This document shows positions 13,961-29,654 of a stretch of DNA of 29,654 bases, in pieces. How positions within the stretch are numbered: the stretch's first letter is position 1; each line of letters opens with the position of its first letter. The DNA is from a bacterium (GTDB taxonomy: Bacteria; Elusimicrobiota; Elusimicrobia; Elusimicrobiales; UBA9959), in contig JAJZVJ010000001.1 in NCBI GenBank assembly GCA_021845705.1, positions 1 to 29,654 on the forward strand. Direction: 5' to 3'. A program made the translations under genes and the position numbers. The notes below the pieces were generated by a model. The model was given only the letters and a program-made list of their open reading frames with translations, did not search any database and was not told where the DNA came from.

Positions 13961-14551
13961 TTACGGCTTGCCCTTAAAACTTTTAGCTACTTTTTCAAAG
14001 ACGGGCAGGTTCTCTATAAAGGCCGTTTTTGGCGCGCTAAAATTCAGCACATAAAAGCCTTCTTTAGCCGGCAGCACATAAAGTTTCTCTTTTAGCTGAA
14101 CGCTGTCATCAGACTTGCTCTCAGGGTGGAGAAAAACCATCCTCTCGCGCGAAAGTATCACGCCTTTGCGGCCGCCTAAAGTAATTTTTTTTGCGGGCTC
14201 AAAGAGTTCCCGCGCTGTTTTTGTTTCTCCCGCAACATTCCTGGAGTTGCGGTGTATAAAATCATCAGGTCCGTTAAAATCCTCATTATCCTTTGCGTAA
14301 TAAGAAACGAATATCGAGACAGGAGCTTTTTCGGCTTTAGGTGAAAGAAGCTCTATTTCGTAGATCTTATATTCCTCATCTTTGTCTTTATCCCTCTCCA
14401 GGCTCCAGGAAACCGGGACGCTGCAGGAAAAATAATTATTATCCATGACATAATTCTTGAACTGACCCCCGCGGGTTTTAGCCTGCGGCCCGGCGCAGGC
14501 GGCGGAGGCCATAAGAGCAAGGACCGAGACCGTAAAAATCATGTTTTTCAT
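13961..14551 (-). CDS. exported or lipoprotein of unknown function, PsbP/DUF1795-like fold possible
   Basis: Signal MKNMIFTVSVLALMASAAC, FSCSVPVSW, ITLGGRKG, FYVLNFSAP..F...LPVFEKVAKSF. ATGA overlap with the upstream gene. Confidence 0.7.
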   Translation of the reverse strand: MKNMIFTVSVLALMASAACAGPQAKTRGGQFKNYVMDNNYFSCSVPVSWSLERDKDKDEEYKIYEIELLSPKAEKAPVSIFVSYYAKDNEDFNGPDDFIHRNSRNVAGETKTARELFEPAKKITLGGRKGVILSRERMVFLHPESKSDDSVQLKEKLYVLPAKEGFYVLNFSAPKTAFIENLPVFEKVAKSFKGKP

Positions 14552-16296
14552 ATAGCTGGCGGCGCCCCGGGTTTGGCTGCAGCGCCGGCCTCCATTGATT
14601 TAAGAGCTTTGCGCCCTTCCCTGTCCGAGGCGCTGTAGCGGCTTTTATAAACGCCAAGTTTGGAAAGGTCCGTCTGTATTTTAGCAAGAACGGGGGTCTG
14701 GATTTCTCCCACGGAGCCGGCCAGTTCGTCCGGGGACATCTCAAGCGCGTCGGACAGGTTAAGGCCGGTGGAATCCAGCTCCGCTTTCTCCGCGGCAGGC
14801 ATTACGTCACGGCGATCCAGTTCCGCGGTAACGGCTCCTAAAACCTGGGAAGCGGCGGAATCGATAGATGGAAGGCCGGAGAAGTAACGCTGACGCACAG
14901 TAGTGGCGAATTTTTTAGAACCGCTCAGCTCGAACTCGGTTCCGATCTCAAGTTTTTTGGAAGCATAGGAGGAAAAATCTCTGCTTGAGGTAAGTATACG
15001 ATTAAATTCCGCGTCCTTGCGGATCTTCTCCGTAGTGTAAAGCCCTTCCAGCGACATAGCCTCAATCTCGTCTTCCTGCACATGCGGCTTGTAGACGTTC
15101 CGGCTGGCGGCCCAGTCCGCCTGCATTTTGTGCCCCGCCTCGTAAACCACGGCAGGGGACATATACTTGGCTATCTCTCCCACCTGCGCGGGGCTGCCCA
15201 TAAGCGAGGCGGCGGTGTAGCCTTTCATGCGCATATACTGCTGTATAGTTTCGGAGTCGAGTATTATGGCGCCCGAAGCGGCGTCGTAGCGGGAATACCC
15301 GCCGCTCAGCGGGGCTATTTTTATCCTGAGCCCTCCGGGGAAGGCGGCCAGGGCGCGGTCCCCGGCTTTGGTCCCGGCCAGCTCACGGGCCGCGGCGGTA
15401 TTAAGCATGCTCCCCAGGAGTTCGCGCTGCTGGGCGGGCAGCACCTCCTGCGGCAGCGAGCCGCGGGCCGCGTTTATCTTGGCCTTCAGGTCCGGGCTCA
15501 CGTTAATATTGCTGCCGTCGAAAAAGTTGCCAAGCAGGTAGATCTTGTCTTCGAAACTTTTGCCGGAAAGCTGGGCCAGCTGCGAGGGCGAAAGCGCCCC
15601 GGAATTGATGACCGCCCGCACGGCCACGTCCACGGCCACCTGGTCCCTGGCCGCCGAGAGCTTTTCATCGCTGTAAAAAAGGAACTGGGGGTTAACCTCT
15701 ATTATTTTTTCTATCACGGCGTTGCGCTCGCGTATCACCATCCCCGCCCAGGCGGCCTTGGTGACGTTAACGGCCTGGCCCGAGCGCATATCCGCCTGGC
15801 CCCAGCTCAGCGCGCGCGTGCTGGTCATAGTCCCAAAAACCACGTCCCATTCCCTTATGGCTTTCCTTATGACCGCTTTTTTGGTCTCCGGGTAAGAGGG
15901 CTGGTACCTGGCAAGCCAGTCAAAGAGCTTTTCCGGCGCGGGGCCTACGCCCATCCTGGCCAGGGGCTTGTCCGCGTCTATCCTTATAGAGAGGGACTGG
16001 TTGAGCAGGTTTGCTTTAGAATCGTCCCAGGGCAGGGCCAGCAGTTCTTTAAGGTCTTTAAGCGCTTCGGCTTTGCCAAGCAGAACGGCGCCTTTCCGGG
16101 CGTCCGCCTCCGCGAGGCCGCGGGCTTCGTTATCGTTCAAAAAATCCGCGGCGGCCGCGGGGTCGCCGCTTGAAATGGCGGCGTCGTAGGCCGCAAGACG
16201 CTCCTGCACCTGCCCGGCCCCGGCGTTAAGGGCGCCAAGCAGCAGCCCGGCCGCTATGGCGGACAGGCGCAGTATTCTGGCGGGCGCGGAAGTCAT
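14548..16296 (-). CDS. exported hypothetical protein with a degenerate zincin-like domain (YExxH)
   Basis: Signal peptide, helical N-terminal half, GGYSRY..GAIILD, AVVYEAGHKMQ, QEDEIEA. It starts 1 bp after the C11 stop codon. Confidence 0.75.
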   Translation of the reverse strand: MTSAPARILRLSAIAAGLLLGALNAGAGQVQERLAAYDAAISSGDPAAAADFLNDNEARGLAEADARKGAVLLGKAEALKDLKELLALPWDDSKANLLNQSLSIRIDADKPLARMGVGPAPEKLFDWLARYQPSYPETKKAVIRKAIREWDVVFGTMTSTRALSWGQADMRSGQAVNVTKAAWAGMVIRERNAVIEKIIEVNPQFLFYSDEKLSAARDQVAVDVAVRAVINSGALSPSQLAQLSGKSFEDKIYLLGNFFDGSNINVSPDLKAKINAARGSLPQEVLPAQQRELLGSMLNTAAARELAGTKAGDRALAAFPGGLRIKIAPLSGGYSRYDAASGAIILDSETIQQYMRMKGYTAASLMGSPAQVGEIAKYMSPAVVYEAGHKMQADWAASRNVYKPHVQEDEIEAMSLEGLYTTEKIRKDAEFNRILTSSRDFSSYASKKLEIGTEFELSGSKKFATTVRQRYFSGLPSIDSAASQVLGAVTAELDRRDVMPAAEKAELDSTGLNLSDALEMSPDELAGSVGEIQTPVLAKIQTDLSKLGVYKSRYSASDREGRKALKSMEAGAAAKPGAPPAI

Positions 16297-16297
16297 A

Positions 16298-17566
16298 TCA
16301 CTTAAGCCTCTCGCTCATTATAGCCAGCAGGAAACTTCCCCACTGTGAATCGTTGGAAAAAGCCAGTCTCTCGTAATTAGCGGAATTGTAGCGCTGGTCG
16401 GGCACATAGATGGCCAGGCCGTTCGCCCGCGTATAGCTTTTCTGCACCGGCTGTTTTACCGCGTTGAGTATGACGAGCTTGGTTGAAATATAATCCTTTA
16501 GATCCTCACCGGCGCTCTTGACCGGCTGGCTGGCGGCCAACGCCGCGTCCACGCGGTCAACGTAGTCTTCCAGGTCTTTAGACTCTTCCTGCGCGAACCT
16601 GGAAGTGGAAGAGACAAGGCCGGCGTTCGCGGCCGCCGACAAGGCTTTTTTATCGGCTTTTACGGCCGAAACCCAGTTATCAAGAGCGCTCACGAACCCC
16701 GGCATAGCCGAGGTCCTGACGGCGGAAAGCGTAGCGTCGGCCCGGTAGCTGGCGCCATAAGCGTCCACCATAGCGCCGCCAAGAGCTTCCGCGTTCATCC
16801 CCGGGTTAGCGGAAAGCCGGCCCAGGAGCGTGTTGTAAGGATAACCGTCGTCCGGGATGGATTCCTCGGAGCCGACTATGACCGAAGCGGAATCTTTTAG
16901 TTCGTAAACTACGCTGGCCATCTGCATAAGGCACGCGTCGGTGGCGAAAACGTCTATCTTGCGGCCAAGGACCTGCTTTATCTGCGCCAGGGCGGCGCCC
17001 AGCTGGTCCACTTCCATATAGTTCTTGCTCACATCGTCGAAAGAAATGCCCAGCCTGCCGTCGCCGTGGTTCCAAAGTACGATAGCCGTTTTTTTTGCCG
17101 GGTATTTGCGTACAGCCCGCTTTACGAAGCGCACCAGATTGGCCGCGCTGCCCATATCGGAATCGTTGGATGAATAAATGACCGGGGAACTTATCCTGGA
17201 AGTGTCGGAATCCCTGGTAACGAACAGGGTTTTAGCCCCGCGCGGGAACTGCAGGTTGCGGCCGGAGGGATCGTCTATCCCAAGCACGCCGTATTCCACC
17301 ACCACAGCCATGCGGTCCGAGGAACCGACCTGCTCCATTTCATTTATATCTTTGTTTGCGTAGCCAAGTATGCCAAGGTCGTTGACGCCGTTTATAAAAA
17401 CCATCACCAGCCAGTCGCGCTCCGCGGCGGGGGCCGGGGCGGGCACGGCGGGGGAAGCCGCCGGGCGCGGCAGGTTTGACATGAGGCTGTCGAAAGAAGC
17501 GTCCTGGGCGTTTAAGCCCACCGCCATTGCGGACAGCGCCGCGAATATTAAAAATGCCCGTTTCAT
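16298..17566 (-). CDS. clostripain-related cysteine peptidase (family C11, clan CD), exported
   Basis: WLVMVFINGVNDL, DINEMEQVGS, MGSAANLVRFV....YPAKK..IVLWNHGDG (catalytic His), ATDACLM (catalytic Cys), IVGSEESIP..GYPY. Confidence 0.9.
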   Translation of the reverse strand: MKRAFLIFAALSAMAVGLNAQDASFDSLMSNLPRPAASPAVPAPAPAAERDWLVMVFINGVNDLGILGYANKDINEMEQVGSSDRMAVVVEYGVLGIDDPSGRNLQFPRGAKTLFVTRDSDTSRISSPVIYSSNDSDMGSAANLVRFVKRAVRKYPAKKTAIVLWNHGDGRLGISFDDVSKNYMEVDQLGAALAQIKQVLGRKIDVFATDACLMQMASVVYELKDSASVIVGSEESIPDDGYPYNTLLGRLSANPGMNAEALGGAMVDAYGASYRADATLSAVRTSAMPGFVSALDNWVSAVKADKKALSAAANAGLVSSTSRFAQEESKDLEDYVDRVDAALAASQPVKSAGEDLKDYISTKLVILNAVKQPVQKSYTRANGLAIYVPDQRYNSANYERLAFSNDSQWGSFLLAIMSERLK

Positions 17567-17683: not shown

Positions 17684-17711
17684 ATTATACGTGAATATCT
17701 TGACTTGTCAA
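17684..17711 (-). promoter_or_regulatory. consensus sigma70 promoter of the C11 operon
   Basis: The minus strand reads TTGACA-N16-TATAAT, with both hexamers perfect, in an AT-rich intergenic region. Confidence 0.75.
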
Positions 17712-17845
17712 GGCCATACCACATAGTGGCGGGAGGCCGAAAGCAGTTTTCTGCCGCAAGGCCGCAAATTGACCGACGTTTAAAGTTTACTTCGGTTTTC
17801 CCGCGGTTGACGCTGCTTAAAGAGGCCGCAAATTGTCTGGTAAAA

Positions 17846-18820
17846 TTAGAACTTCTTCTTCAGCGTTATGCGCTGCACGCTTCCCAGGCTGCCTTCCGGG
17901 GACATGGCGTAGTCCAGGTCCGCGTTCATTACTTTTATACCCGCCCCCGCGCTGAACGCGCCCGCGGCGCTTTGGCCGGAACCGCCGTTCACGCCGCCGC
18001 GCAGGGAAAGGCCGCTCATGGTACCCGGCCCGCCGAAAAGGGCGTACTCCGTGCCCAGGCTGTAGGCGGTGTGTTTGTCGTACACATAGCGCCGCGCGTC
18101 CAGGTTCAGCATAAAGCCCGCAACAGGCGTGAACATTATGCCGGCGCTTACGCTTAAAGGCAGTTGGTCGCGCTGGGAAATATATTTTATCCCCGTGCCC
18201 AGGTTCTGCACGGCAACACCCACGGACACCGGTAGCCCCCTAAAGCCGCGTTTTACGCCCAGGTCCACCGCGTAACCCGTCCCTTTTACGCCCGCAATAG
18301 AACTTTCTATGTACTTCACCGCCCCGCCCACGCTGTACCTGCCGTATTGTTTGGCCAGCGCAAGGCCGGCCGCCTGGTCGTAGGCGGAATAGCCGCCGGT
18401 TATGCCCCTTGCAGCCGTGCGGCCTTCCATTTCGCCGCTCGACAGCCGGGCGAAACTTAGGCCCAGTTTCCACTTGGCGGAACCGGGCAGGGCGAACCCC
18501 GCGCCCACAAAATCGTACGCCGTGCCAAGATACAGGGCGCTGTGGCTTAAGGCGGCCTCGCCGCGCTCCATTGAGGCGAGCCCGGCCGGGTTATACGAAA
18601 TGGCGCTTATCCCGACAGCGGAAGCCGCCCCCGCCGACGACATGGCCCCCGCCCGCGCGTCCGTGTCTATGCGCAGGAACTCCGCGCCGCTTTCAAGCGC
18701 CTGGCTTAGCTTTACCGACGGGGTAAACACAAAAACAAGCGCCGCGCCCAGCACCCAGGGCCTTGAAAGCAGGTAAACAATGCGGTTCAGCATCTCATGA
18801 GGGTTAATTTTAGTTTTCAT
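17846..18820 (-). CDS. PorV/PorQ-family (UPF0164-like) outer-membrane beta-barrel
   Basis: GAEFLRI...ARAGAM..A..A.......I.YNPAGLA, GGAVKYI..SI, DLGV, GVAVQNLG, LSLRGG, FSAGAG...DYAM, and a C-terminal Phe. Confidence 0.82.
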   Translation of the reverse strand: MKTKINPHEMLNRIVYLLSRPWVLGAALVFVFTPSVKLSQALESGAEFLRIDTDARAGAMSSAGAASAVGISAISYNPAGLASMERGEAALSHSALYLGTAYDFVGAGFALPGSAKWKLGLSFARLSSGEMEGRTAARGITGGYSAYDQAAGLALAKQYGRYSVGGAVKYIESSIAGVKGTGYAVDLGVKRGFRGLPVSVGVAVQNLGTGIKYISQRDQLPLSVSAGIMFTPVAGFMLNLDARRYVYDKHTAYSLGTEYALFGGPGTMSGLSLRGGVNGGSGQSAAGAFSAGAGIKVMNADLDYAMSPEGSLGSVQRITLKKKF

Positions 18821-18830
18821 GATCCCCCCC

Positions 18831-19145
18831 TTAACGGACCACCGCGAACTTGCCGGTTTTTTTCAGCTTCCGCCCGTCCTTTTTAGCCTCTATGTAGTAA
18901 AGGTAAACCCCGCTGGGGATATGGCCGCGCCAGGCGTATTCGTAGGCGTAGCTTAAGCCGTTGCCGTCGTCCAGCTCAAGCGGCGGCCCCATAAGCGTAT
19001 GCTCGTGCGCAAGCCTGCCGCTTATGGTGTATATTTTTATGTCCACGCTGTAGGCCAGGCCGCATTCTATATGGAACGCGGGCACGTCCGCGCCTTTGGC
19101 CGGGTTAGGGAACACGTAAACCTCGCCCAGCCTGAACGCCGGGTC
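18831..19145 (-). other. T9SS type-A-like / FlgD-Ig-like C-terminal sorting domain
   Basis: FPNP start, IKIYTISGRLA, W, SGVYLYYIEA and terminal K-rich KTGKFAVVR. Confidence 0.75.
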
Positions 19146-22100
19146 GGGCCCGGCGAGAACCCCGGAACCGCCGGAGGGCATAGCCGCCGCCCTGGTCTTT
19201 ATGCCGCCGCCCGGCCGCCCGGCAGCCGCGGGCAGAGCCTCCCCGGACTGCATAATATTGCCCATGCCGCTGACGGCGGCGGCCCTTACGAAATAATGCC
19301 CGCCCAGCAGCGCGTTGCCGCCCAGCTTCATGTCCGCGTACGGGGCGTAGACCGTTGCAACCAGGTTTGCCCCCCCTGTAAACGTGATAGTAGAGGAAGT
19401 TTTAACAAAAATGTTCAGGCTGGAAGCCGCGCCGGCGGCATTAAACGAACTGCCGCCGTTCATGTTGATATCTCCCGATACAAGTATGTCTACTTTTCCG
19501 TCTATCTTTACGTCGGCCCCGCCGGAAAGTTCGATGCCTTTAAAGTAGTAAGTCCCGGTGGACAACGTAAGCACGGCTTTGGAACTTACCGCCAATTTCC
19601 CGTCCACAAGATAGCCGGCGGGAGGCGTATTGCCCGCGCCCTCCTGAATGGCGCCCAGAGAAACAGGCTCGGGCTGCAATTGGGCCGCGCCGTTGACCGC
19701 CTGGCCGGTTATCTGCGCTTTGCCCTTAAGCGTGATAGTGGAGGCGTAGACGTCACCCAGTATGCGCGTGTTCCCCGAGAGCGCCGCTTCGGAATTGGAA
19801 TTAACCGCGCCCGAGATATCCGCCGTGCCCGACATGGCAAGCCCGGCCACGGCGTCCAGCGCGTCGTTCTGCAGCGTGCTCACCGCCAGCCGCGCCTGCT
19901 TATATGTCTCTATGTTGCCCAGGTTATCCACCGACCAGTAACGGATGTCCCAGGTGCCCTGCGGCAGGGTGAAGGGCTGCGTATAGCTGTACACCGCGGA
20001 CTGGCCCGTGGCCACGTTCACTGGCTGGTAGAATATTTGTTTAAGCCCGGAAGCTACTCCCGCCGAAACCACATCCCCGGCGGCAAGGGTTAACGGCGTC
20101 TCCGGCGTAAGCACCGGCAGGCCGAAAGCCTGGAACCTGGGCCCGCCCAGGGTTATGGACGTGGCGGGCGGCGTGTTGTCCACGGCGAGCTGCGCGGTCT
20201 TTAACTGCTCCGCATTATTCACACGGTCCAGGCTGTAGTATTCCAGCGTGTGCCTGCCTTCCGCCGTTATGGTGAAGCTGCCCGCGTAGATCTGCCAGTC
20301 GCCGCCGTCAACCCGGTACTTGGTCAGCAGCACGCCCGAGGCCGTGTCGTTGCTTGCGGGGTCGGCGGCGGTAAGGACTACGCCCGAGTTCCTCGTTATA
20401 TAGATAAGCCCGTCGGCGTCGTAGCGGGCGCCGCTTATGGAGAGGTCCGTTCCCGGCGGCGTGGCGTCCACCCAAAGCTCGGAGGTCTTTGCCGCTTCCG
20501 TGTTGGCAACCTGGTCGGCCGAGTAGAACGACACCGCGCGCTTGCCTTCGGCGGGCAATGTGAAGGCCGCGTAGTCCGCGTACGCGCCGCCGTCAATGGA
20601 GTATTTCGTATAGCGCACGCCGGAGGCGACCTGGTTTACAACAGGGTCCTCGGCGGTTATCAGCACCCGCGAGCGCGTACTGATGTAAACCTTACCGCCG
20701 CTGTACCTGTCACCGGATATGGATAGTTCGCTTGCAGGCGCGCTGCCGTCCACGTAGAATTGCGCTGACCTTGACGCCTCTATGTTGCCCGCCTTGTCTC
20801 CGGCGCGGTAAGCAACGTTGTGGATGCCTTCCGGGAGGTTGAACGACGAGGGATATACGCTGAACGGCACGGCATCCATGTAATACTCAATTGCATTAAC
20901 CCCGCTGGCGGCGCCGCTGGAAACAGGGTCGGAGGCCGTGAGCGCAATAAACGAGCGCAGGCTCAGGTATTCCTTCCCGCCATTCTTCCAATCGTCACCG
21001 GACACGGAAAGCAAACTATCAGGCGCGGTCTTGTCTATGTTTATGCCGCCTATGGAAGCGCTTGAACTGTTATCAGCGTAGTCCATGGCGTTGCCCATTG
21101 CGCCCTCGCCGTAGCCTTCGGCACTAAAAACCACTTCGGGCGGGCACAGCCTGACGCCGGAGAGCGCGTCGGCGCAGGTATAGGAGGCTGTGACATCCGT
21201 ATTGTTCCAGCCGTAAGTGTTGGCAAGCGGCACGCGCGCTATGCTCACCGTCGGGCTGGTAAGGTCTATGCTGAAATGCGCCGTAACCGTGCTGGAAAGG
21301 CCAGCGTAGTCGCGGCAATAGCCGGAAACCGCTATGTCCTTGCCTTCAACATCTATAGTTTTGGGCGGCTCGCAGTAAGCCAGGCCGGAGATGGTGTCGG
21401 TGCCGGTGAAGACCACCGCCGCCGCCCCGTTATGCCACCCGTACCGGTTGGCAGCGGGGATTACGGCATCGGACACCGACGGCGCGGTGAGGTCCAGCTT
21501 GAACGCCAGGCTCTGCGGCGCCTTGGTATTGCCAAGGTTGTCACTGGCGTAATACCAAAGCGTATGCTGCCCCTCGGCAGGCACGCTGAAGGCACCCGCG
21601 TATTGCGCAAAGGCGTCACCGGCGGCGCCGTCAACCCGGTAGTAGATGGCCGACACGCCTGACAATTCATCCACTGCGGACAGGTTTATAGTAACGGTGG
21701 AAACATACCAGCCATTATCGCCGGTGGCGCCCGCAAGCTGCGCGGAAGTCTCCGGCGCGGTATTGTCCAGCGCTATGGCGCTGCGCCGGACGGTTTCCGT
21801 GTTGCCAAGCACGTCCACGGCATTGTAGTCCAGGTAATACCTGCCGTCCGGCAGGGTAAACGCGGAGGCGAACGTGAACGTGGACACGAACGCTCCCCCC
21901 TGTCTGGGCTGCGGATTGTCAAACCTGGCGCTGGCCGCTACAGAACTGCCGGCCACAATGCCGACATTCTGCGCCTTGACGCCCAGCCCTATGCCGTCGC
22001 CCGCCGCCACCAGGTCGTCCAGGCTGGCAAGATCCAGCACGGAATCGCCCTTAAGATACGTCGTGCCGTTGCTGTCGTAATGCGTCCCGGCCACCGAGAG

Positions 22101-25100
22101 CGCGCTTGCGGGCTGCCTGACGTCGTGCACCACCTCGAACGCGCCGCCCACGGCGGAACTTGTGTTAAGCGCAAAGTCCGTTGCGTTCACCATCAACTGC
22201 CACATACCGTCGTCTATATCAAGCGGCTCCAGGGACTGGCCGGAGGTTACGGCTATCCTGTCGGGCCGCGAGCCGCGCGGGCTGCCTTTGTCCTCGGTCT
22301 CGACGAGGAAAGCCTGCATGGCCGGGGCCGGGTCAAGATTGTCGCTTACAGTAAAGAAAGGCTGTATCTTGTTCCGCGCGGCCACAAACACATTCCCGGC
22401 AACCGGCGAGGAGATGACTATCCGCGGCGGTGTTCTGTCTATGTTCGCGCGCGCCGTGAGCTGCGCCAGGTTCCCGGCCAGGTCGCTGGCAGCGGCTGTT
22501 GTGGAAACACCGACGCCCTCGCCGGCAAGAATAACATCCTCCGGACAGGATTTAATGCCCGAGAGCGCATCGCTGCATACGAACTTAACGGCCACGTCCC
22601 CGTTGTTCCACCCCGCGGCATTGGGAGCCGGCTTCAGCGAATAAGCCAGCTCCGGCGCGGTGGTGTCTATGCTCACCGTTACCGTGGCCATAGAGGAATT
22701 TGCAGCTTTGTCCCGGCAGTAGCCGCTGACCGCAATACTGGACCCTTGCACGGACACGGTTTTTTGCGGTTCGCAGAAATCAAGCCCGGACAAGGCGTCA
22801 CTGCCGGCAAAACTCACCGTCACCGGGCCATTGTTCCAGCCGTACCCGTTGGCAGGCGGCTCAGGCGCGGCCGAAGTTTCCGGTTTTGTCAGGTCCACAT
22901 TAACCTTCGCCGTGGCGTAGGCCACATTCCCCGCAACGTCACGGCACCAGCCGGGAACGCTCTGCGCCACGCCTTCAAGCGTCAGCGTCGCGGAAGAGCA
23001 CGCCTCAATACCCGACAGCGTGTCGGTCCCCGCGAACACCACCTGCACCGCGGTGTTGTTCCATCCCGCCCCGTTCGGCGCGGGAACCAGCGAATAGCTG
23101 GCCGCAGGCGCGGAAGAATCAAGTTTGAACGCAACTGATCTTTCAACCTCCGCGTTGCCCGCTTTATCCACGGCGTGATACTTAACCGTATGCGCTCCTT
23201 CCGTCGACACCTGCAATGGTGCGCCATAAACGGTATATGTCCCGCCGTCCAGCGAGTACATAACCGCGGCCACGCCTGAAAGAGCATCTGTGGAAGCCAG
23301 CACAACCTCTACGGGCGAAGAATACCAGCCGTTGCGGGAAACTCCGGAAAGCGCGGCGGTACTCACAGGCGCGGTTTTGTCTATCTTTATCCCGTCCGCC
23401 ACGGCTTCGGTGAAATTATCCGCGTAATCGTACACACTGGCGGAAGTGGAAATACCAACGCCCTCTCCGGAAAGAACTATATCCACCGGGCAGTTCCGCA
23501 CACCGGACAGATCATCAGCACAGGTAAACTTCAGGGTAACGTCGCTGTTGTTCCAGCCTGCCCCGTTAGCCGCGGGCAGGGCGGTATACCCGGCTTTCGG
23601 CGCGGTGGTGTCTATATTCACCACCAGCGCAGCCGTGGAGGACCAGCCGGCGTAGTCGGCGCAGTAGCCGGATATGGTCTGGCTGGAGCCCTCGGTCCCT
23701 ACAACTTTTACAGGCGTGCAATACGCCAGCCCTGAGACCGCATCCGTCCCGCTGAACACAGCGGACACGGCGCTGTTGTTCCAGCCATAGCTATTCGCCG
23801 CCGGGGTAGAAACCGCCGCTGCCAGGGGCGCGTTAAGGTCCAGTTTGAACGCCAGTTCTTTTTCGGCTTCTCTGTTGCCCGCCTTATCCACGGCGTAATA
23901 TTTCAGCGGATGCGCACCCGCGCCGGGAACCGCGAAAGACGAGGTATAAAGCGTAAAAGAAGAACCATCAATAGAATAATAAAGTCCTCCAACCCCGCTC
24001 AGGGTATCAGTGGAGGCAAGCGCCACCGCGGCCGGCGACAAGAACCAGCCGTTCTGGCCCGGCACCGCCGCAACCCCCGCGCCCGACACGGGCGGCGTGG
24101 TGTCTATGTTCAGACGGAAAGAAACAGTGGAGGTCCACCCCGCGTAGTCGGCGCAATATCCCGAAACGGGGATACCCGGCCCCTCGCCGCTCACGGTGAA
24201 CGAGGAGCTGCAATAGGCAACGCCCGACACCGCGTCGGTGCCCGCAAAAACCACGTTCACAGGGGCATTATTCCAGCCTTCGGAATTAGAAGCCGGGTTA
24301 TAGGAATAGCCGGCAACAGGCGTGGAAATATCAATACCAAAGGCGGCCGTACTGATCTTTTCAGCATTGGAAACATTATCTACCGAATAGTGCCCGATTG
24401 TATGCCTGCCTTCGGCCAAAACGGGGAAGGAGGAATTATAAACCGCGAAACTGGAACCATCCAGACTGTAAAGCGTTTTGCGGACTCCGGAACCGGCATC
24501 GGAGGAGATAATTATTACTCCGGTAACGGAAGTATACCAGCCAGTGCCGGCCGGGGTTCCGTTCAGCAGCAACGCGCTTACAGGCGCGGCAGTGTCTACA
24601 TACACGGATACTGCGCCTGGCACACCCGTATTGCCGACATTATCCCCGGCAGAATACCCCAGGGAATGCGCTCCGCCGGAAGAAAGGAATATCTCCGCTG
24701 CGCCCGAGAGCGCGGCATGGGTACTGCCGTCAACTGTATAGAACAACTCTTTCACCCCGGATCCCGTATCGGAAGAAACCAGTGTTACGGTGGAACCGGC
24801 CGAGGCATAAACAATGCCGCCGGCCGCAAAAGATGCACCGGCAACGTCATAGAGGACAGTCGGCGCATAACCATCCACGGAAACTTCAACGGCTTTGGGT
24901 TCTTCTATATTACCCGCCTTGTCGCCGCTGCGGAATTCAAGCCTATGCGTCCCCGTTGAAAGCGTAAACGGCCCGGCATAAGCCGCTAACGGCGCTGTGC
25001 TGGAAGCGTCCACCCGGAACCCGGTAAAAGCCACGCCCGAAGAGGTGCCGTACACCACCGGATCCGAGGCGCTCAACGCAACACTGGACCCGGCATTTAA

Positions 25101-28100
25101 ATAAAACCCGGTGGAAGAAACCCAGGAACTGCCCTGGACCGAAAACACCGTGGCGGGGGCGGTCCGGTCTTTAACCACTCCGAAGATACCGAACAGCGAC
25201 GCTATGCGCGTTACCGGCACGGTAATCTTATGGTTCAGCGTGTCCCGTACCTGGCCGGGCAGTTCTACCCAGCCGGTGCCGGTAAAATATTCATAAACCA
25301 CCGCGTCCGCCTCGGTAAGCCCGGCGGCCGCCAGCGCGGCGGTGGAGTAATAGAACATAAGCGCCGCCGGCGGATCATAAACGCCGTCGGGCTTTATTTC
25401 ATACATATTGCTCGCCAAAGTAAGGCCCTGTACTGCGGCGGAGCCGATGGCCACCGCCCCGGCGCCCGCAACCGTGCTTATCTGCGTAATATACGGCTGC
25501 ACCGGAGAAACCATGCCTATTTCAGGGTTTCCGTCTACTGTGCTGGTCGTCTTCACTACATATTTCGTGAATACGAAAGGACTATTGGATAGCGCGGAGA
25601 CGTTCCCGGCGGCATCATACGTTTTGAGCGCAAAGTAATATGACGTGCCTCCGGCCAATCCGGCAAGCGTAAACCGTTCCTGGGAGCCGGCGGGCCTTGG
25701 CAACGACCCGATATTTGCCGGCTGAGCGGCATTAAAAGCCGTATCGCTTAAAATTTCCGAGCCCCCATATCTAAGGTCATACCTGGAGGCAGTCCCGGAG
25801 CCGCCGTCGTTACCGGGGGCGGTCCAGAACACAGACACACCACCCTCATCCGTGTTTCCTGCGGACAAAACAACGGCGGAAGGCGGAGTAAGATCGGGCG
25901 CGTTTGCCGCATTAAGGAACGAGAAGAATGTTTCAATATTCCGTCCGCCGGCCAGTCCCAAATCGGAAGATGCCTGCAGTATATCTATCTTCCCATCAGC
26001 GTTTATATCCTCGGCGGAAATGGTCCCGCAAAGATGTCCGTACTGGACGTAGCCGCCGGTGGGAAGCGGAACAGGGGCGTCAAAAGTTCCGTCACCGCGG
26101 CCCGCCAGAACATAAATATTCTGTAGCCTGTAAGGGGAAAGGGCTATGTCGTGTATCCCATCCCGGTTAAAATCCGCCGCGACCCCTGTGTAATAGTATG
26201 CCCCCGTTATAGTCTGGGTCTTCTGGAACGACCTGGCGCCGGTCGCCATAAATACGTTAAACTCTTCTGCGCTCACTAACCCCGCATCCTTGTGTCCATC
26301 CTGGTTGAAGTCGGCAATAAGAAATTTCTTCACATCAGCGGTATACTGGTAGGAATAGGGCAAAATAATCTTCTGCCCGAAGCCGCCGGCGCCGTCGCCA
26401 TACAATATGGCGTTCCGGAACAAAATATCGCTTTTTCCGTCATTATCCATATCCGCCACCACTACGCCTCCGCCGCTGCTGGGCGGCAGTTCCGTTGGAA
26501 TAGGCGTGGAAACAGAAACGAGGAAGCCGCCCGGACCACCGAAATATATTTTAATATCGCTTCCGGCCGCCCCCACGATATCCGGATAACCGTCGTTATT
26601 AATGTCTCCCGCTCCTATCCAGGCGTGAGTTATTAGGTGGCCCAGCGTTACCGGGTCCTTAAAGGTTCCGTCGCCGTTACCGGCCAGAAAGACAAGGTCA
26701 TCGGCCGAATACGGGTAAAGCGGGTTAAAAACGGATACCATGATATCCAGCCGCCCATCACCGTTAAAATCAGCCGCCACCGCATCGTCTCCGCCGGAAT
26801 ACTGCGTATTCATACCCGGTAACCGGACGGTATATACGTATTGGAATGTTCCGTCGTTATTGCCTTTGTAGAATGTATAGTTCCCGCCCTCACTGAAACC
26901 AACCACATCCTTCTTTCCATCCCCGTCGAAATCCGCCACAACGGTAGCGCTGGTATCAAAAACTCCGGTGGCAGGGCCCGCGATCATTGAACCGAACAGG
27001 AGTGGGGCCATTGGCTTAACTGTAATACCAAGATAAGCGGCCGGCGGGGACATATTGCCCGCCAAGTCTGAATTCTCCACGCGCAGCAGGTGCGGACCGG
27101 CGGTTAAGCCGGACAGGTTCAGGGAAAAACCGCCGGTCCGGTCAGCCCAGACCCGCCCGACAAGCGTGCTTCCATCATAGACATCCGTCCGCGACGCGGC
27201 TTCCGCCAGCCCAAGCACCAGAGGCGCGCTGGAATAAACCACCGCCCCGGTCACCGGAGAGATTATCTGCGGCGCGCTCTGCGGCGGAGTATGGTCCGCA
27301 CCGTATATTTTCATGTCGTTCTTCGTACCGGCATACACCCGGCCGGAATAAGGATGAACTGCGGCAAATACGGGGTTCCCCATTACGACCATCTGCCGGC
27401 CGGCAGGAAGATCACCGAATGTTCCCAGAATTCCGCCGGTACTTGTATAAATATCCACTGAAGCACTCGCGGAATTAGAAAGATAAATATTCCCGAAAGT
27501 ATCCAGAAAAATAGAATTCGGCGCACTGGAAATGACGGGGATATCTGCCAGCAGGTTGCCTGCCGGGTCAAACTTTTTCACCTTTACGTCAGGGCTGGCT
27601 GAATAATCAACAGTGAACAGATTCCCCCCGCTGTCAGAAGCAAGCCCGGAATAGGCATACAAAACATTGATCGGAAACTTCCCTGTATAATTCCCGGCGC
27701 TGTCGAAACCCATTATTTGAGCGCTGGGCATTGTATTAGCGGCTACAAAAGGCTTATTTTCTCTATCGCACGTCACAAACCTTGGGAAAGCATAGGAAAA
27801 CTGCGGATTCCCCGAGATATCCATCTCCTTAAGAAGCTCACCGGAAGCGGAAAATTTCTTTAAGGCAAAAGAATACCCGCCGGTTACTTGTGCCAACGCC
27901 CAGAATGTGCCGTCAGGGCAGACAGAAAAGTCCTCAAGAGCCGTAAGATCGGAGGAAAAGCTTTTAAGATAGTTCCCCCCCTGATCAAAAATCTGTATCC
28001 TGCCCAGTTGTCCACCGTCCCCGGCCCAGACATTGCCTGCGGCGTCAAAATCTATCTTCCCCAGGCTGCTGAATTGCCCTACGCCGGAACCGGAAGCGCC

Positions 28101-29654
28101 GAAACCGCCCTGATATTCAAAATACGGCCAGGCGGCGGCGTCTCCATACCAGGAGGAGACGACATTCACGCTATAGCGCCTGAAGCCGCTCCCGTTACCG
28201 ACGTTATCCGTGGCTGAGACATATATAAGATGCCGGCCTTTGGCAAGCTGGAAAGGCGCGGCATACACGGGATTAAGACATGTTCCGGGCGGCGCTGTAG
28301 AAACAGACGGCACGTTCATATTACAGCTTAAGGGGTCAACATCCACCAGATATCTGGCGGACGCAACACCCGAAGCGGAATCCGTGGAGAGTATGGAAAT
28401 ATAAAATCCAGTAAGCGAACCAACTGTGTCCGTGTCCTGCCACACAACGTGGCCCTCCGGGGAAAGTTCGGCGGATGGGGCATTATTATCAAGAGTTACC
28501 GTCATAGTGCTGACAACACCTGCCTTGCCGCCTGTATCGGTGGAATAGTATTCAATGCTATAAGTCCCGGAGTTATTACCGGCAAGGCTGAAAGTTGAAA
28601 CAAAAATCTGCCCCGGCGCGGGCGCCGTATCATTGAAAACGAGTTGCCTGACAAGTTCCCCGCTGTTCCTTATATTAACAACAACGCTTGCCACCCCGAA
28701 CCCTTTATTATCACCGGCTTTAACAAGGTCATCAGCCGAGGTAATAGTAAAAGCTGTAGCCGACGACACAAAAACCGGGGAGGAACCGAAAGCCGGCGTC
28801 CCCACGGCCAACCCGCTGTGCGGAGGAAGATAATCCACCACCTGCATAAAAAGACCGGCCAGGTACGGTATCCGCTGCACCTCCGCAGCTATAAATGTTC
28901 CCGCCGGCTGAATACGCTGCCCTATGAGGCCGGAAACCTCCGGAGAGCTACTCAAAGTAACCCCGTCAAAAGAATAGACCGACAAAGTGCCGGTATCGGT
29001 AACCACCTTGGGGTCATACTTGAAGATTATGGAACCATAAGGGGAAAGGCTTCCACCTGATGTTCCAAAGGAATATACCGCCCCCGCGGGGAGCAACCCT
29101 TTGCTGCCGGCGGCGGAAACGAAAGCCACGGCCGCCGGGGAACCGGCAGGCATACTGGAAACTACCACGCTGGGATCAGCGGAATATAATTTTACCGAGC
29201 CGTCGTACGATACCGCGACTCCCGGAAAAGCCATTTTATTTACCACCGAGCTGCCCGTGAAAACCAGATTCCCCGCTTTATCCGGACAGATAGCCTGGGC
29301 ATAGAAAATATTCGCGAAGGCTGCCGGCATAGGCGACCCGGAGGGTATACCGGTGCCGGACCAGACCAACGCGCTGACCAGGCCCGTTTTACCAGCAAGC
29401 AGGTAAAGGCTGTAACCGTCGGTAATGAACAGGCTGCCGTCTTTGCCGGCTGCCACGCCGTCCACATACCCTATATCCCGCTGTAATGCCGGGGCGGTAT
29501 CCAAAAGGAGCGTACCCCCTCCGGCAACGGTGGTGACCGTCCCGCCGAGGACCTTGCGCACCCTTTTATTGTACACATCCGCTATATAGAGCTCGTTCAG
29601 GGAGTCGAAAGCAATACCGCCGACCACCGCGAATTTGGCGGACAGGGCAGGCCC
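18831..29654 (-). CDS. giant (>3607 aa, 5'-truncated) modular secreted surface protein or adhesin with a T9SS type-A-like C-terminal domain
   Basis: The frame is open to the window edge (GPALSAKFAVVGGIAFD..LYIAD, an NHL repeat). It contains NHL, FG-GAP, FN3, Ig-like and beta-solenoid modules and ends VYVFPNP...IKIYTISGRL...W...SGVYLY.I....KKTGKFAVVR. Confidence 0.9.
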   Translation of the reverse strand, partial: GPALSAKFAVVGGIAFDSLNELYIADVYNKRVRKVLGGTVTTVAGGGTLLLDTAPALQRDIGYVDGVAAGKDGSLFITDGYSLYLLAGKTGLVSALVWSGTGIPSGSPMPAAFANIFYAQAICPDKAGNLVFTGSSVVNKMAFPGVAVSYDGSVKLYSADPSVVVSSMPAGSPAAVAFVSAAGSKGLLPAGAVYSFGTSGGSLSPYGSIIFKYDPKVVTDTGTLSVYSFDGVTLSSSPEVSGLIGQRIQPAGTFIAAEVQRIPYLAGLFMQVVDYLPPHSGLAVGTPAFGSSPVFVSSATAFTITSADDLVKAGDNKGFGVASVVVNIRNSGELVRQLVFNDTAPAPGQIFVSTFSLAGNNSGTYSIEYYSTDTGGKAGVVSTMTVTLDNNAPSAELSPEGHVVWQDTDTVGSLTGFYISILSTDSASGVASARYLVDVDPLSCNMNVPSVSTAPPGTCLNPVYAAPFQLAKGRHLIYVSATDNVGNGSGFRRYSVNVVSSWYGDAAAWPYFEYQGGFGASGSGVGQFSSLGKIDFDAAGNVWAGDGGQLGRIQIFDQGGNYLKSFSSDLTALEDFSVCPDGTFWALAQVTGGYSFALKKFSASGELLKEMDISGNPQFSYAFPRFVTCDRENKPFVAANTMPSAQIMGFDSAGNYTGKFPINVLYAYSGLASDSGGNLFTVDYSASPDVKVKKFDPAGNLLADIPVISSAPNSIFLDTFGNIYLSNSASASVDIYTSTGGILGTFGDLPAGRQMVVMGNPVFAAVHPYSGRVYAGTKNDMKIYGADHTPPQSAPQIISPVTGAVVYSSAPLVLGLAEAASRTDVYDGSTLVGRVWADRTGGFSLNLSGLTAGPHLLRVENSDLAGNMSPPAAYLGITVKPMAPLLFGSMIAGPATGVFDTSATVVADFDGDGKKDVVGFSEGGNYTFYKGNNDGTFQYVYTVRLPGMNTQYSGGDDAVAADFNGDGRLDIMVSVFNPLYPYSADDLVFLAGNGDGTFKDPVTLGHLITHAWIGAGDINNDGYPDIVGAAGSDIKIYFGGPGGFLVSVSTPIPTELPPSSGGGVVVADMDNDGKSDILFRNAILYGDGAGGFGQKIILPYSYQYTADVKKFLIADFNQDGHKDAGLVSAEEFNVFMATGARSFQKTQTITGAYYYTGVAADFNRDGIHDIALSPYRLQNIYVLAGRGDGTFDAPVPLPTGGYVQYGHLCGTISAEDINADGKIDILQASSDLGLAGGRNIETFFSFLNAANAPDLTPPSAVVLSAGNTDEGGVSVFWTAPGNDGGSGTASRYDLRYGGSEILSDTAFNAAQPANIGSLPRPAGSQERFTLAGLAGGTSYYFALKTYDAAGNVSALSNSPFVFTKYVVKTTSTVDGNPEIGMVSPVQPYITQISTVAGAGAVAIGSAAVQGLTLASNMYEIKPDGVYDPPAALMFYYSTAALAAAGLTEADAVVYEYFTGTGWVELPGQVRDTLNHKITVPVTRIASLFGIFGVVKDRTAPATVFSVQGSSWVSSTGFYLNAGSSVALSASDPVVYGTSSGVAFTGFRVDASSTAPLAAYAGPFTLSTGTHRLEFRSGDKAGNIEEPKAVEVSVDGYAPTVLYDVAGASFAAGGIVYASAGSTVTLVSSDTGSGVKELFYTVDGSTHAALSGAAEIFLSSGGAHSLGYSAGDNVGNTGVPGAVSVYVDTAAPVSALLLNGTPAGTGWYTSVTGVIIISSDAGSGVRKTLYSLDGSSFAVYNSSFPVLAEGRHTIGHYSVDNVSNAEKISTAAFGIDISTPVAGYSYNPASNSEGWNNAPVNVVFAGTDAVSGVAYCSSSFTVSGEGPGIPVSGYCADYAGWTSTVSFRLNIDTTPPVSGAGVAAVPGQNGWFLSPAAVALASTDTLSGVGGLYYSIDGSSFTLYTSSFAVPGAGAHPLKYYAVDKAGNREAEKELAFKLDLNAPLAAAVSTPAANSYGWNNSAVSAVFSGTDAVSGLAYCTPVKVVGTEGSSQTISGYCADYAGWSSTAALVVNIDTTAPKAGYTALPAANGAGWNNSDVTLKFTCADDLSGVRNCPVDIVLSGEGVGISTSASVYDYADNFTEAVADGIKIDKTAPVSTAALSGVSRNGWYSSPVEVVLASTDALSGVAAVMYSLDGGTYTVYGAPLQVSTEGAHTVKYHAVDKAGNAEVERSVAFKLDSSAPAASYSLVPAPNGAGWNNTAVQVVFAGTDTLSGIEACSSATLTLEGVAQSVPGWCRDVAGNVAYATAKVNVDLTKPETSAAPEPPANGYGWNNGPVTVSFAGSDALSGLDFCEPQKTVSVQGSSIAVSGYCRDKAANSSMATVTVSIDTTAPELAYSLKPAPNAAGWNNGDVAVKFVCSDALSGIKSCPEDVILAGEGVGVSTTAAASDLAGNLAQLTARANIDRTPPRIVISSPVAGNVFVAARNKIQPFFTVSDNLDPAPAMQAFLVETEDKGSPRGSRPDRIAVTSGQSLEPLDIDDGMWQLMVNATDFALNTSSAVGGAFEVVHDVRQPASALSVAGTHYDSNGTTYLKGDSVLDLASLDDLVAAGDGIGLGVKAQNVGIVAGSSVAASARFDNPQPRQGGAFVSTFTFASAFTLPDGRYYLDYNAVDVLGNTETVRRSAIALDNTAPETSAQLAGATGDNGWYVSTVTINLSAVDELSGVSAIYYRVDGAAGDAFAQYAGAFSVPAEGQHTLWYYASDNLGNTKAPQSLAFKLDLTAPSVSDAVIPAANRYGWHNGAAAVVFTGTDTISGLAYCEPPKTIDVEGKDIAVSGYCRDYAGLSSTVTAHFSIDLTSPTVSIARVPLANTYGWNNTDVTASYTCADALSGVRLCPPEVVFSAEGYGEGAMGNAMDYADNSSSASIGGINIDKTAPDSLLSVSGDDWKNGGKEYLSLRSFIALTASDPVSSGAASGVNAIEYYMDAVPFSVYPSSFNLPEGIHNVAYRAGDKAGNIEASRSAQFYVDGSAPASELSISGDRYSGGKVYISTRSRVLITAEDPVVNQVASGVRYTKYSIDGGAYADYAAFTLPAEGKRAVSFYSADQVANTEAAKTSELWVDATPPGTDLSISGARYDADGLIYITRNSGVVLTAADPASNDTASGVLLTKYRVDGGDWQIYAGSFTITAEGRHTLEYYSLDRVNNAEQLKTAQLAVDNTPPATSITLGGPRFQAFGLPVLTPETPLTLAAGDVVSAGVASGLKQIFYQPVNVATGQSAVYSYTQPFTLPQGTWDIRYWSVDNLGNIETYKQARLAVSTLQNDALDAVAGLAMSGTADISGAVNSNSEAALSGNTRILGDVYASTITLKGKAQITGQAVNGAAQLQPEPVSLGAIQEGAGNTPPAGYLVDGKLAVSSKAVLTLSTGTYYFKGIELSGGADVKIDGKVDILVSGDINMNGGSSFNAAGAASSLNIFVKTSSTITFTGGANLVATVYAPYADMKLGGNALLGGHYFVRAAAVSGMGNIMQSGEALPAAAGRPGGGIKTRAAAMPSGGSGVLAGPDPAFRLGEVYVFPNPAKGADVPAFHIECGLAYSVDIKIYTISGRLAHEHTLMGPPLELDDGNGLSYAYEYAWRGHIPSGVYLYYIEAKKDGRKLKKTGKFAVVR
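19240..19880 (-). other. Gly/Ser/Asn-rich beta-solenoid domain
   Basis: Short repeats such as LAMSGTADISG, ALSGNTRILG, TLKGKAQITG, GTYYFKGIELSGG, INMNGGSSFN, VYAPYADMKLGGN. Confidence 0.6.
19881..25169 (-). repeat. about 20 tandem Ig-like modules (about 75-120 aa each)
   Basis: Each begins DxxxP and contains D..SG and (D/C)..(A/V)GN. I counted 20 by eye; 8 carry a Cys pair and a GW(N/H)N motif. Confidence 0.85.
25580..25895 (-). other. fibronectin type III-like module
   Basis: DLTPP...VFWTAPGNDG..GTASRYDLRY...LAGGTSYYFALKTYDAAGNVSALSN. Confidence 0.75.
25920..26990 (-). repeat. seven FG-GAP/VCBS repeats (Ca-binding beta-propeller)
   Basis: DFDGDGKKD, DFNGDGRLD, DINNDGYPD, DMDNDGKSD, DFNQDGHKD, DFNRDGIHD, DINADGKID. 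Confidence 0.88.
27300..28110 (-). repeat. NHL-repeat beta-propeller
   Basis: FGASGSGVGQFSSLGKIDFDAAGNVWAGD...RIQIFDQGGNYLKSF, GLASDSGGNLFTVD, VKKFDPAGNLL, IFLDTFGNIYLS. Confidence 0.8.

Follow-up and report, generated by a model that had tools for sequence, protein, structure and literature searches.

Why does a giant surface-protein gene in a bacterium outside the Bacteroidota end in what looks like a type A sorting domain of type IX secretion systems (T9SS), and why does the gene of a PorV-like outer-membrane barrel begin 10 bp after it? The 29,654-nt stretch of DNA that raises this question (the window) is the entire contig C148 of a metagenome-assembled genome (2.7 Mb, 436 contigs, 74% complete). 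On balance we favour the answer that the window carries one module, of cargo and carrier, from a surface-protein system that is related to type IX secretion and present throughout the Elusimicrobiota. Type IX secretion is described as confined to the Bacteroidota or to the Fibrobacteres-Chlorobi-Bacteroidetes (FCB) group (e.g. PMC7906972, PMC7463736, PMC10994853). The sequence-only reading, an earlier description of this DNA made by a model from its letters, had placed the host outside the Bacteroidota, and the homologues agree with it. The closest homologues of the barrel, at 75-89% identity, belong to Elusimicrobia bacterium GWC2_61_19, GWA2_61_42 and GWB2_63_22 (NCBI records), those of a SprA-like protein encoded elsewhere in the same genome are all from Elusimicrobia/Elusimicrobiota, and the window shows synteny to GCA_001799735.1. 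The Elusimicrobiota form a separate phylum, outside the FCB group.

The cargo open reading frame (ORF) occupies 18831..29654 on the minus strand. It is open at its 5' end, where the contig ends, and encodes >3607 amino acids, an adhesin-like passenger followed by the C-terminal sorting/anchor domain (CTD). Its TAA stop is at 18833-18831. The motifs FPNP, IKIYTISGRL, SGVYLY and KTGKFAVVR, which had been assigned to the C-terminal end of this giant ORF, all lie within its last ~100 residues. The barrel gene (17846..18820, minus strand) has its ATG at 18820, 10 bases past the cargo stop, and encodes 324 amino acids with an N-terminal signal-like hydrophobic stretch. The 10-bp intergenic spacer (18821..18830, minus strand) reads GGGGGGGATC on the coding strand and includes a G-rich Shine-Dalgarno-like run (G7), so the adjacent barrel with a ribosome-binding site of its own was read correctly from sequence. 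Neither a promoter-like nor a convincing terminator-like site is seen at the junction. Judged by the 10-bp gap, cargo and barrel would be co-transcribed. In the passenger, libraries of hidden Markov models (HMMs) recognize NHL, Big_3_3, Big_13, FG-GAP, fn3, 11 OmpL47-type and DUF7305 domains. The eleven OmpL47-type domains match NF047446 with 505 bits summed; their name comes from a surface protein of Leptospira.

The barrel is assigned to the PorV/PorQ family by NCBIfam NF033709, with 118.7 bits at a cut-off of 90 and a match spanning positions 2-325 of the 326 in the profile. In the PDB, the family profile has PorV (6h3i_F; E 2.4e-11) as its sole significant match. The AlphaFold2 (AF2) model built from the family alignment is a FadL-type barrel of ~14 strands, and Foldseek places PorV 6h3i_F and 8gl6_F on top, then FadL/TodX; TbuX is also matched. 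Some of these barrel genes are already named 'PorV/PorQ family protein' by the NCBI Prokaryotic Genome Annotation Pipeline (PGAP). The Pfam PorV model PF19572 gives 16.3 bits, below its cut-off of 27, and for the barrels the PorQ model gives higher scores than the PorV model. By these comparisons no Elusimicrobial barrel appears to be an ortholog of PorV or of PorQ. In a tree they fall outside three Bacteroidota groups with weak support (73/59). Phylogeny gave no decision on a PorV or PorQ origin, or on horizontal transfer; the radiation is star-like and the barrel of the window sits on a long branch.

The CTD (18834..19142, minus strand; cargo residues 3505-3607) is modelled by AF2 as an 8-strand β-sandwich with a predicted local distance difference test score (pLDDT) of 90.8. 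This fits the 7-8 strands expected of a type A CTD of ~80-100 residues. Its top fold match in the PDB is Porphyromonas gingivalis PorU (6za2; TM-score 0.65, 23% identity over 105 columns), and within NCBIfam it is matched best by the PorZ, M6-like and PorU models, at their C-terminal ends. An HMM built from the tails of its own genome matches it at E 3.5e-16, and 15 other tails in the genome pass the cut-off of TIGR04183. A lysine close to the C-terminus is near-invariant and important in type A CTDs (PMC10994853); nine of 12 paralogous tails have it, including that of the window, which ends in ...GKFAVVR. In the alignment, the CTD of the window carries the insertion LMGPPLELDDGNGLSYAYEY, and the paralogues are without it.

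The tail and the barrel are predicted to bind each other, as the sequence-only reading had proposed. A complex of barrel residues 36-324 with tail residues 3505-3607 scores 0.91, and the best control 0.00, a comparison that is silent on which paralogue binds; of 78 solved complexes 51 reached that mark, as did 2 of 108 mismatched pairs. The contacting barrel residues are 96-100, 126-139, 173-178, 211-218, 281-286 and 311-312, that is alternate inter-strand loops, together with the N-terminal segment 40-51. The strand order of the barrel model suggests that these loops form the extracellular face.

The pairing is not peculiar to the window. In its own genome, an HMM of tails found 23 ORFs with a C-terminal CTD-like domain, and 15 of these have a same-strand barrel downstream, 12 at -118 to +80 nt and mostly at -4 to +80; two ORFs lie at contig edges. 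One cargo with one barrel, inferred earlier from a single example, is thus systematic in this genome. A profile of the window's barrel finds 15 strong paralogues and ~10 weaker ones, while with NF033709 there are 25 matches, of which 13 exceed the cut-off. Identity among paralogues is 19-38% for barrels and 17-49% for tails, and the paralogues appear to be old. CTDs and barrels have diverged in a correlated manner (Mantel r 0.48, p 0.004). In other families of the phylum, five genomes each contain 17-67 matches to TIGR04183, many of which are located directly upstream of PorV-family matches. The Bacteroidota control genomes (n=5) have 1-3 PorV-family genes over the cut-off each.

Comparison of loci gives the strongest single evidence for the pairing. 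At locus L172 a barrel 89% identical to that of the window is preceded by a 2835-aa cargo with a Kelch/Big_2 passenger, and this cargo shares with the cargo of the window only its last 104 residues, at 81% identity. Since both elements are kept here on a different passenger, tail and barrel travel and are conserved as a cassette, independently of the passenger. At loci L174 and L175 an orthologous cargo (61% identity over the last 768 residues in L174) and the barrel are again adjacent. Locus L172 bears on the idea that the pair is an uptake device, with a FadL-like channel and a surface binding protein docked on it in the logic of SusC/SusD. The channels among the fold matches and the binding-type domains of the passengers would suit such a device. 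However, the barrel has the tail as its conserved partner, and the passenger is swapped in L172; the paired cargoes of this genome range from 115 to >3607 residues, which points to varied passengers; and the nearest relative of the barrel in sequence and fold is PorV, not FadL. We consider uptake very improbable.

A candidate for the outer-membrane pore is a SprA-like protein of 1782 residues encoded in the same genome (contig C425, 3420-8768). Its match to TIGR04189 (SprA/Sov) has an E of 1e-36 and consists of three colinear stretches. Its family profile finds Flavobacterium johnsoniae SprA in the PDB as the sole match (E 3e-15); a single-sequence phmmer search of the PDB gave no match. Its atlas neighbours carry SprA_N. 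The protein is conserved at 50-81% identity across the phylum, where NCBI names it 'hypothetical protein'. Among 101 Elusimicrobiota genomes that are at least 85% complete, 96 have the SprA-like frame (~1750-1900 aa), none over the TIGR04189 cut-off, and 100 have PorV-family genes; the sole genome without PorV-like matches is also without the SprA-like protein. The SprA-like gene is divergently adjacent to lptF/lptG, with a ComF-like gene next, both in its own genome (C425 1057-8768, locus L051) and in two distant relatives (loci L176 and L177), in which the SprA-like protein is 51% and 67% identical. This arrangement hints at a link of the giant barrel with lipopolysaccharide or outer-membrane biogenesis. 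A 653-aa ORF that seemed to be coupled upstream of the SprA-like gene was discarded as a shadow ORF that overlies lptF/lptG on the other strand.

The presence of this protein matters for a different explanation, in which the small barrel itself exports its neighbour, as in two-partner or autotransporter systems, without involvement of the SprA-like protein. The gene order of one cargo and one barrel is like that of TpsA/TpsB, where a giant adhesin gene also stands beside a dedicated outer-membrane barrel gene, and the SprA-like gene is linked to lptFG rather than to cargo genes. TpsB is an Omp85-type transporter that recognizes an N-terminal TPS domain. The Elusimicrobial signal, in contrast, is C-terminal, the barrel is small, 14-stranded and of PorV/FadL type rather than Omp85 type, and no homology to TpsA/TpsB was found. 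The predicted contact is on the loop face and not in the lumen, SprA-like and PorV-like proteins co-occur throughout the phylum down to the one genome that is without both, and the solved relatives of the barrel are carriers, not pores (PMC10994853). Export by the barrel is, in our judgement, quite improbable. The sequence-only reading had left it at a barrel that may export or tether its cargo; of the two, tethering or carrying is the better supported because a conserved SprA-like protein is present, and export through the barrel is less so.

The remaining parts of the Bacteroidota machine were not detected. HMM searches found none of GldK, GldL, GldM and GldN in the window's own genome, the only genome searched for GldK. 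Across Elusimicrobiota genomes at least 95% complete (samples of 41-61 genomes, single-contig genomes included), GldL is over the cut-off in 0 of 61, GldM in 0 of 61 and GldN in 0 of 41, while the same searches found each of the three in 5 of 5 Bacteroidota genomes, which were reached via a 16S signature. In the window's genome only CTD-like ends match the PorU model NF033707, and the catalytic part was not found. Peptidase_C25 occurs in one of 61 Elusimicrobiota genomes, in a search made without a positive control. The earlier expectation that no full canonical T9SS would be present is therefore borne out by GldK, GldL, GldM, GldN and the catalytic part of PorU, with controls for GldL, GldM and GldN.

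The same searches bear on whether the phylum has an ordinary T9SS whose motor, ring and sortase are too divergent for HMMs, with the pairs as an expanded set of carriers for a canonical machine. Matches to SprA itself all stay below the curated cut-off, which shows strong divergence of the T9SS parts of this phylum; GldL, at 247 profile positions, is short; and the single genome with Peptidase_C25 would also fit. However, no GldL, GldM or GldN passes the cut-off in 41 to 61 nearly complete genomes when all Bacteroidota controls are positive, and GldK is missing from the window's genome although its sulfatase-modifying-like fold is normally easily detected. We regard a hidden canonical machine as unlikely.

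A candidate for a substitute motor is encoded outside the window, at 8000-23708 of contig C231 of the same genome (locus L190). Here CTD cargoes and two PorV-like barrels are interleaved on one strand with motor-like genes. The order is a giant CTD cargo, a small CTD protein, a 561-aa barrel, a FliF_C/FliG_C-like gene, a CheY-like receiver, a CTD cargo, a barrel, a TPR-LysM protein, MotA and two MotB; one barrel is preceded by two CTD proteins. The genome has three more FliG-like genes, two with MotA and/or MotB beside them. FliG_C genes occur in 10 of 11 genomes of the host's family, and FlhA in 0 of the 11, with four flagellated controls positive, so the FliF/FliG-MotAB cassette is non-flagellar. 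Of 21 FliG_C genes in six genomes of the family, 19 have a PorV-family gene no more than 5 kb away; with a chance of ~0.1 each the binomial tail is 1e-17, a value that is overstated as the relatives are not independent. The cassette may substitute for the missing motor, a link to export that we infer from gene neighbourhood. Long-form barrels of 490-570 residues, with a C-terminal extension of 150-250 residues, are encoded at C109:2391-4106, C61:2486-3991, C231:9052-10737, C367:182-1663 and C230:816-2303. The extension of the C109 barrel has a weak TPR/PilW-like match. In relatives, barrels beside FliG-like genes are also found in long frames.

Homology, gene order, inheritance as a cassette and the predicted interface together suggest how the cargo-carrier module could work. 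The cargo would reach the periplasm via Sec; its N-terminus lies beyond the contig end at 29654, and export by Sec is presumed. It would then cross the outer membrane through the SprA-like giant barrel, as homology indicates, with its private PorV/PorQ-like barrel as carrier. The barrel whose gene begins 10 bp downstream is predicted to recognize the CTD sandwich through its extracellular loops. As the searches detected no PorU-type sortase, the tail probably remains uncleaved, and the cargo would stay non-covalently tethered to its own barrel in the manner of PorZ on PorQ and PorU on PorV. Carriage of each cargo from the SprA-like pore by its own barrel, on which it stays docked, is the most economical scheme, because no sortase was found and the tail most resembles those that PorU and PorZ retain. 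As a candidate source of energy, the FliF/FliG-like and MotAB cassette, which is linked to a subclass of the barrels, might replace the undetected GldLM-GldKN chain. A variant or simplified system had been suggested from the sequence. The first term stands, as no canonical T9SS was found, and the second may be wrong because the FliF/FliG-MotAB cassette is linked to PorV-like barrels.

The scheme combines features that are separate in known systems. In the Bacteroidota, one general PorV serves all type A tails, with power from GldLM and processing by PorU (PMC10994853, PMC12618676), whereas type B tails have cognate PorP/SprF shuttles encoded nearby (PMC12618676, PMC9143113). The closest likeness is to PorZ-PorQ and PorU-PorV of P. 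gingivalis. PorU and PorZ retain their CTDs, and PorV and PorQ hold them at the surface (PMC12365241, PMC10202324), and reviews describe such retained CTDs as bound to cognate PorV-like barrels (PMC10202324, PMC12365241). The Elusimicrobial pairs likewise join a type-A-like CTD to a PorV/PorQ-family barrel, and the tail of the window matches those of PorZ and PorU best. They differ in that the genes are adjacent, in at least 15 pairs per genome compared with 1 to 3 family genes in the Bacteroidota controls, and in that the cargoes are adhesin-like passengers and not parts of a sortase.

In type B systems, such as SprB-SprF of F. johnsoniae and PG1035-PorP of P. gingivalis, the cargo gene is also linked to a dedicated barrel, which is needed for secretion or anchoring and serves one or few cargoes per shuttle (PMC12618676, PMC9143113). 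The likeness is limited to gene arrangement. Tail and barrel belong here to the type A and PorV/PorQ families, and neither TIGR04131 (type B tail) nor TIGR03519 (PorP/SprF barrel) is among the matches to tail or barrel at E <= 0.1. By family membership, the Elusimicrobial pairs appear to be type-A-like tails and PorV/PorQ-family barrels that follow the private-shuttle logic of type B. Compared with the cycle of SprA, PorV and type A CTD in F. johnsoniae (6H3I, 8GL6), the Elusimicrobiota have homologues of all three players and a predicted contact of the CTD with the carrier loops. However, their carriers are private, the SprA-like protein is ~600 residues shorter, and GldLM, GldKN and PorU were not detected.

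Several points weigh against a type IX-related module. The barrel does not reach the cut-off of the PorV equivalog NF033710 (42.5 bits; cut-off 250) or of the PorQ equivalog NF033711 (78.7 bits; cut-off 220), as is likewise the case for five paralogous barrels, and the confidence of its model is moderate (pLDDT 68). The CTD scores 18.0 bits with TIGR04183 (cut-off 23) and 14.9 bits with PF18962 (Por_Secre_tail; cut-off 27), so its description as type-A-like stands by fold and motifs but stays sub-threshold by curated HMMs. The search for sprA/sov had a similarly divided outcome, with a 1782-aa protein that matches TIGR04189 but at 125.6 bits remains below the cut-off of 200. Sub-cut-off and beside lptF/lptG, this protein could have another role in the outer membrane. 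GldLM is absent by HMM search, which highly divergent homologues could evade. Six of the 23 CTD ORFs are contig-internal and yet have no downstream barrel. A PorV-CTD complex has already been solved (8gl6), so the score of the predicted complex may reflect recall or likeness. Finally, the case for the Elusimicrobiota is built on genes and predicted structures.

In the literature searched, we found no relevant paper that links Elusimicrobia with PorV, SprA or T9SS. A phylum outside the FCB group that has the core of translocon, carrier and tail, without GldLM/GldKN or PorU, would bear on which parts of the machine are ancestral, and on how carrier-cargo complexes leave the pore without GldLM. 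It would also bear on whether docking of a retained CTD on its cognate barrel, in the style of PorZ-PorQ, is the original mode of anchoring. We tentatively put forward, as possible, the further proposal that the Elusimicrobiota have a deep-branching relative of the T9SS, with a SprA-like pore, a private carrier/anchor for each cargo and power from the non-flagellar FliF/FliG-MotAB cassette (beside long-form barrels) instead of GldLM. If this is true, the core of translocon, carrier and tail is either older than the Bacteroidota motor or arose independently of that motor. The pairing further offers a rule by which dozens of giant 'hypothetical' surface proteins in each genome could be annotated, and likewise the 'hypothetical' SprA-like protein.

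Some CTD ORFs without a barrel have other neighbours. The ORFs at C61:685-1845(-), C180:1278-3194(-), C429:1465-4767(+) and C240:2576-4306(+) are followed by other signal-peptide proteins, two of which end in an aromatic residue (...GYDVAF and ...RYNYSF), as outer-membrane barrels do. By these sequence features the proteins may be unrecognised partner families.

Downstream of the pair in the window, a three-gene unit on the minus strand (13961-17566) consists of the gene of a C11 (clostripain-family) peptidase (16298-17566) and genes for proteins of 582 and 196 residues. Its promoter-like site, TTGACA-16-TATAAT at 17684..17711 (minus strand), agrees with the consensus in 12 of 12 positions and marks the downstream edge of the cargo-barrel unit. 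The three genes are absent at syntenic loci. In L174 and L175 tatD follows directly after the barrel, and the unit is also missing from L172. The C11 peptidase as a PorU-like sortase partner was rejected as a conserved part of the system; with its own promoter and its absence from the syntenic loci, the unit is an insertion and not a conserved analogue of PorU. No convincing intrinsic terminator was found after the barrel, where the 139-nt spacer shows no advantage in folding over shuffled sequences (z -0.3), and read-through of transcription from the barrel into the C11 unit is therefore possible. Between the barrel stop and the promoter of the C11 unit, AGGCCGCAAATTG occurs twice, at 17758-17770 and 17822-17834, 64 bp apart.

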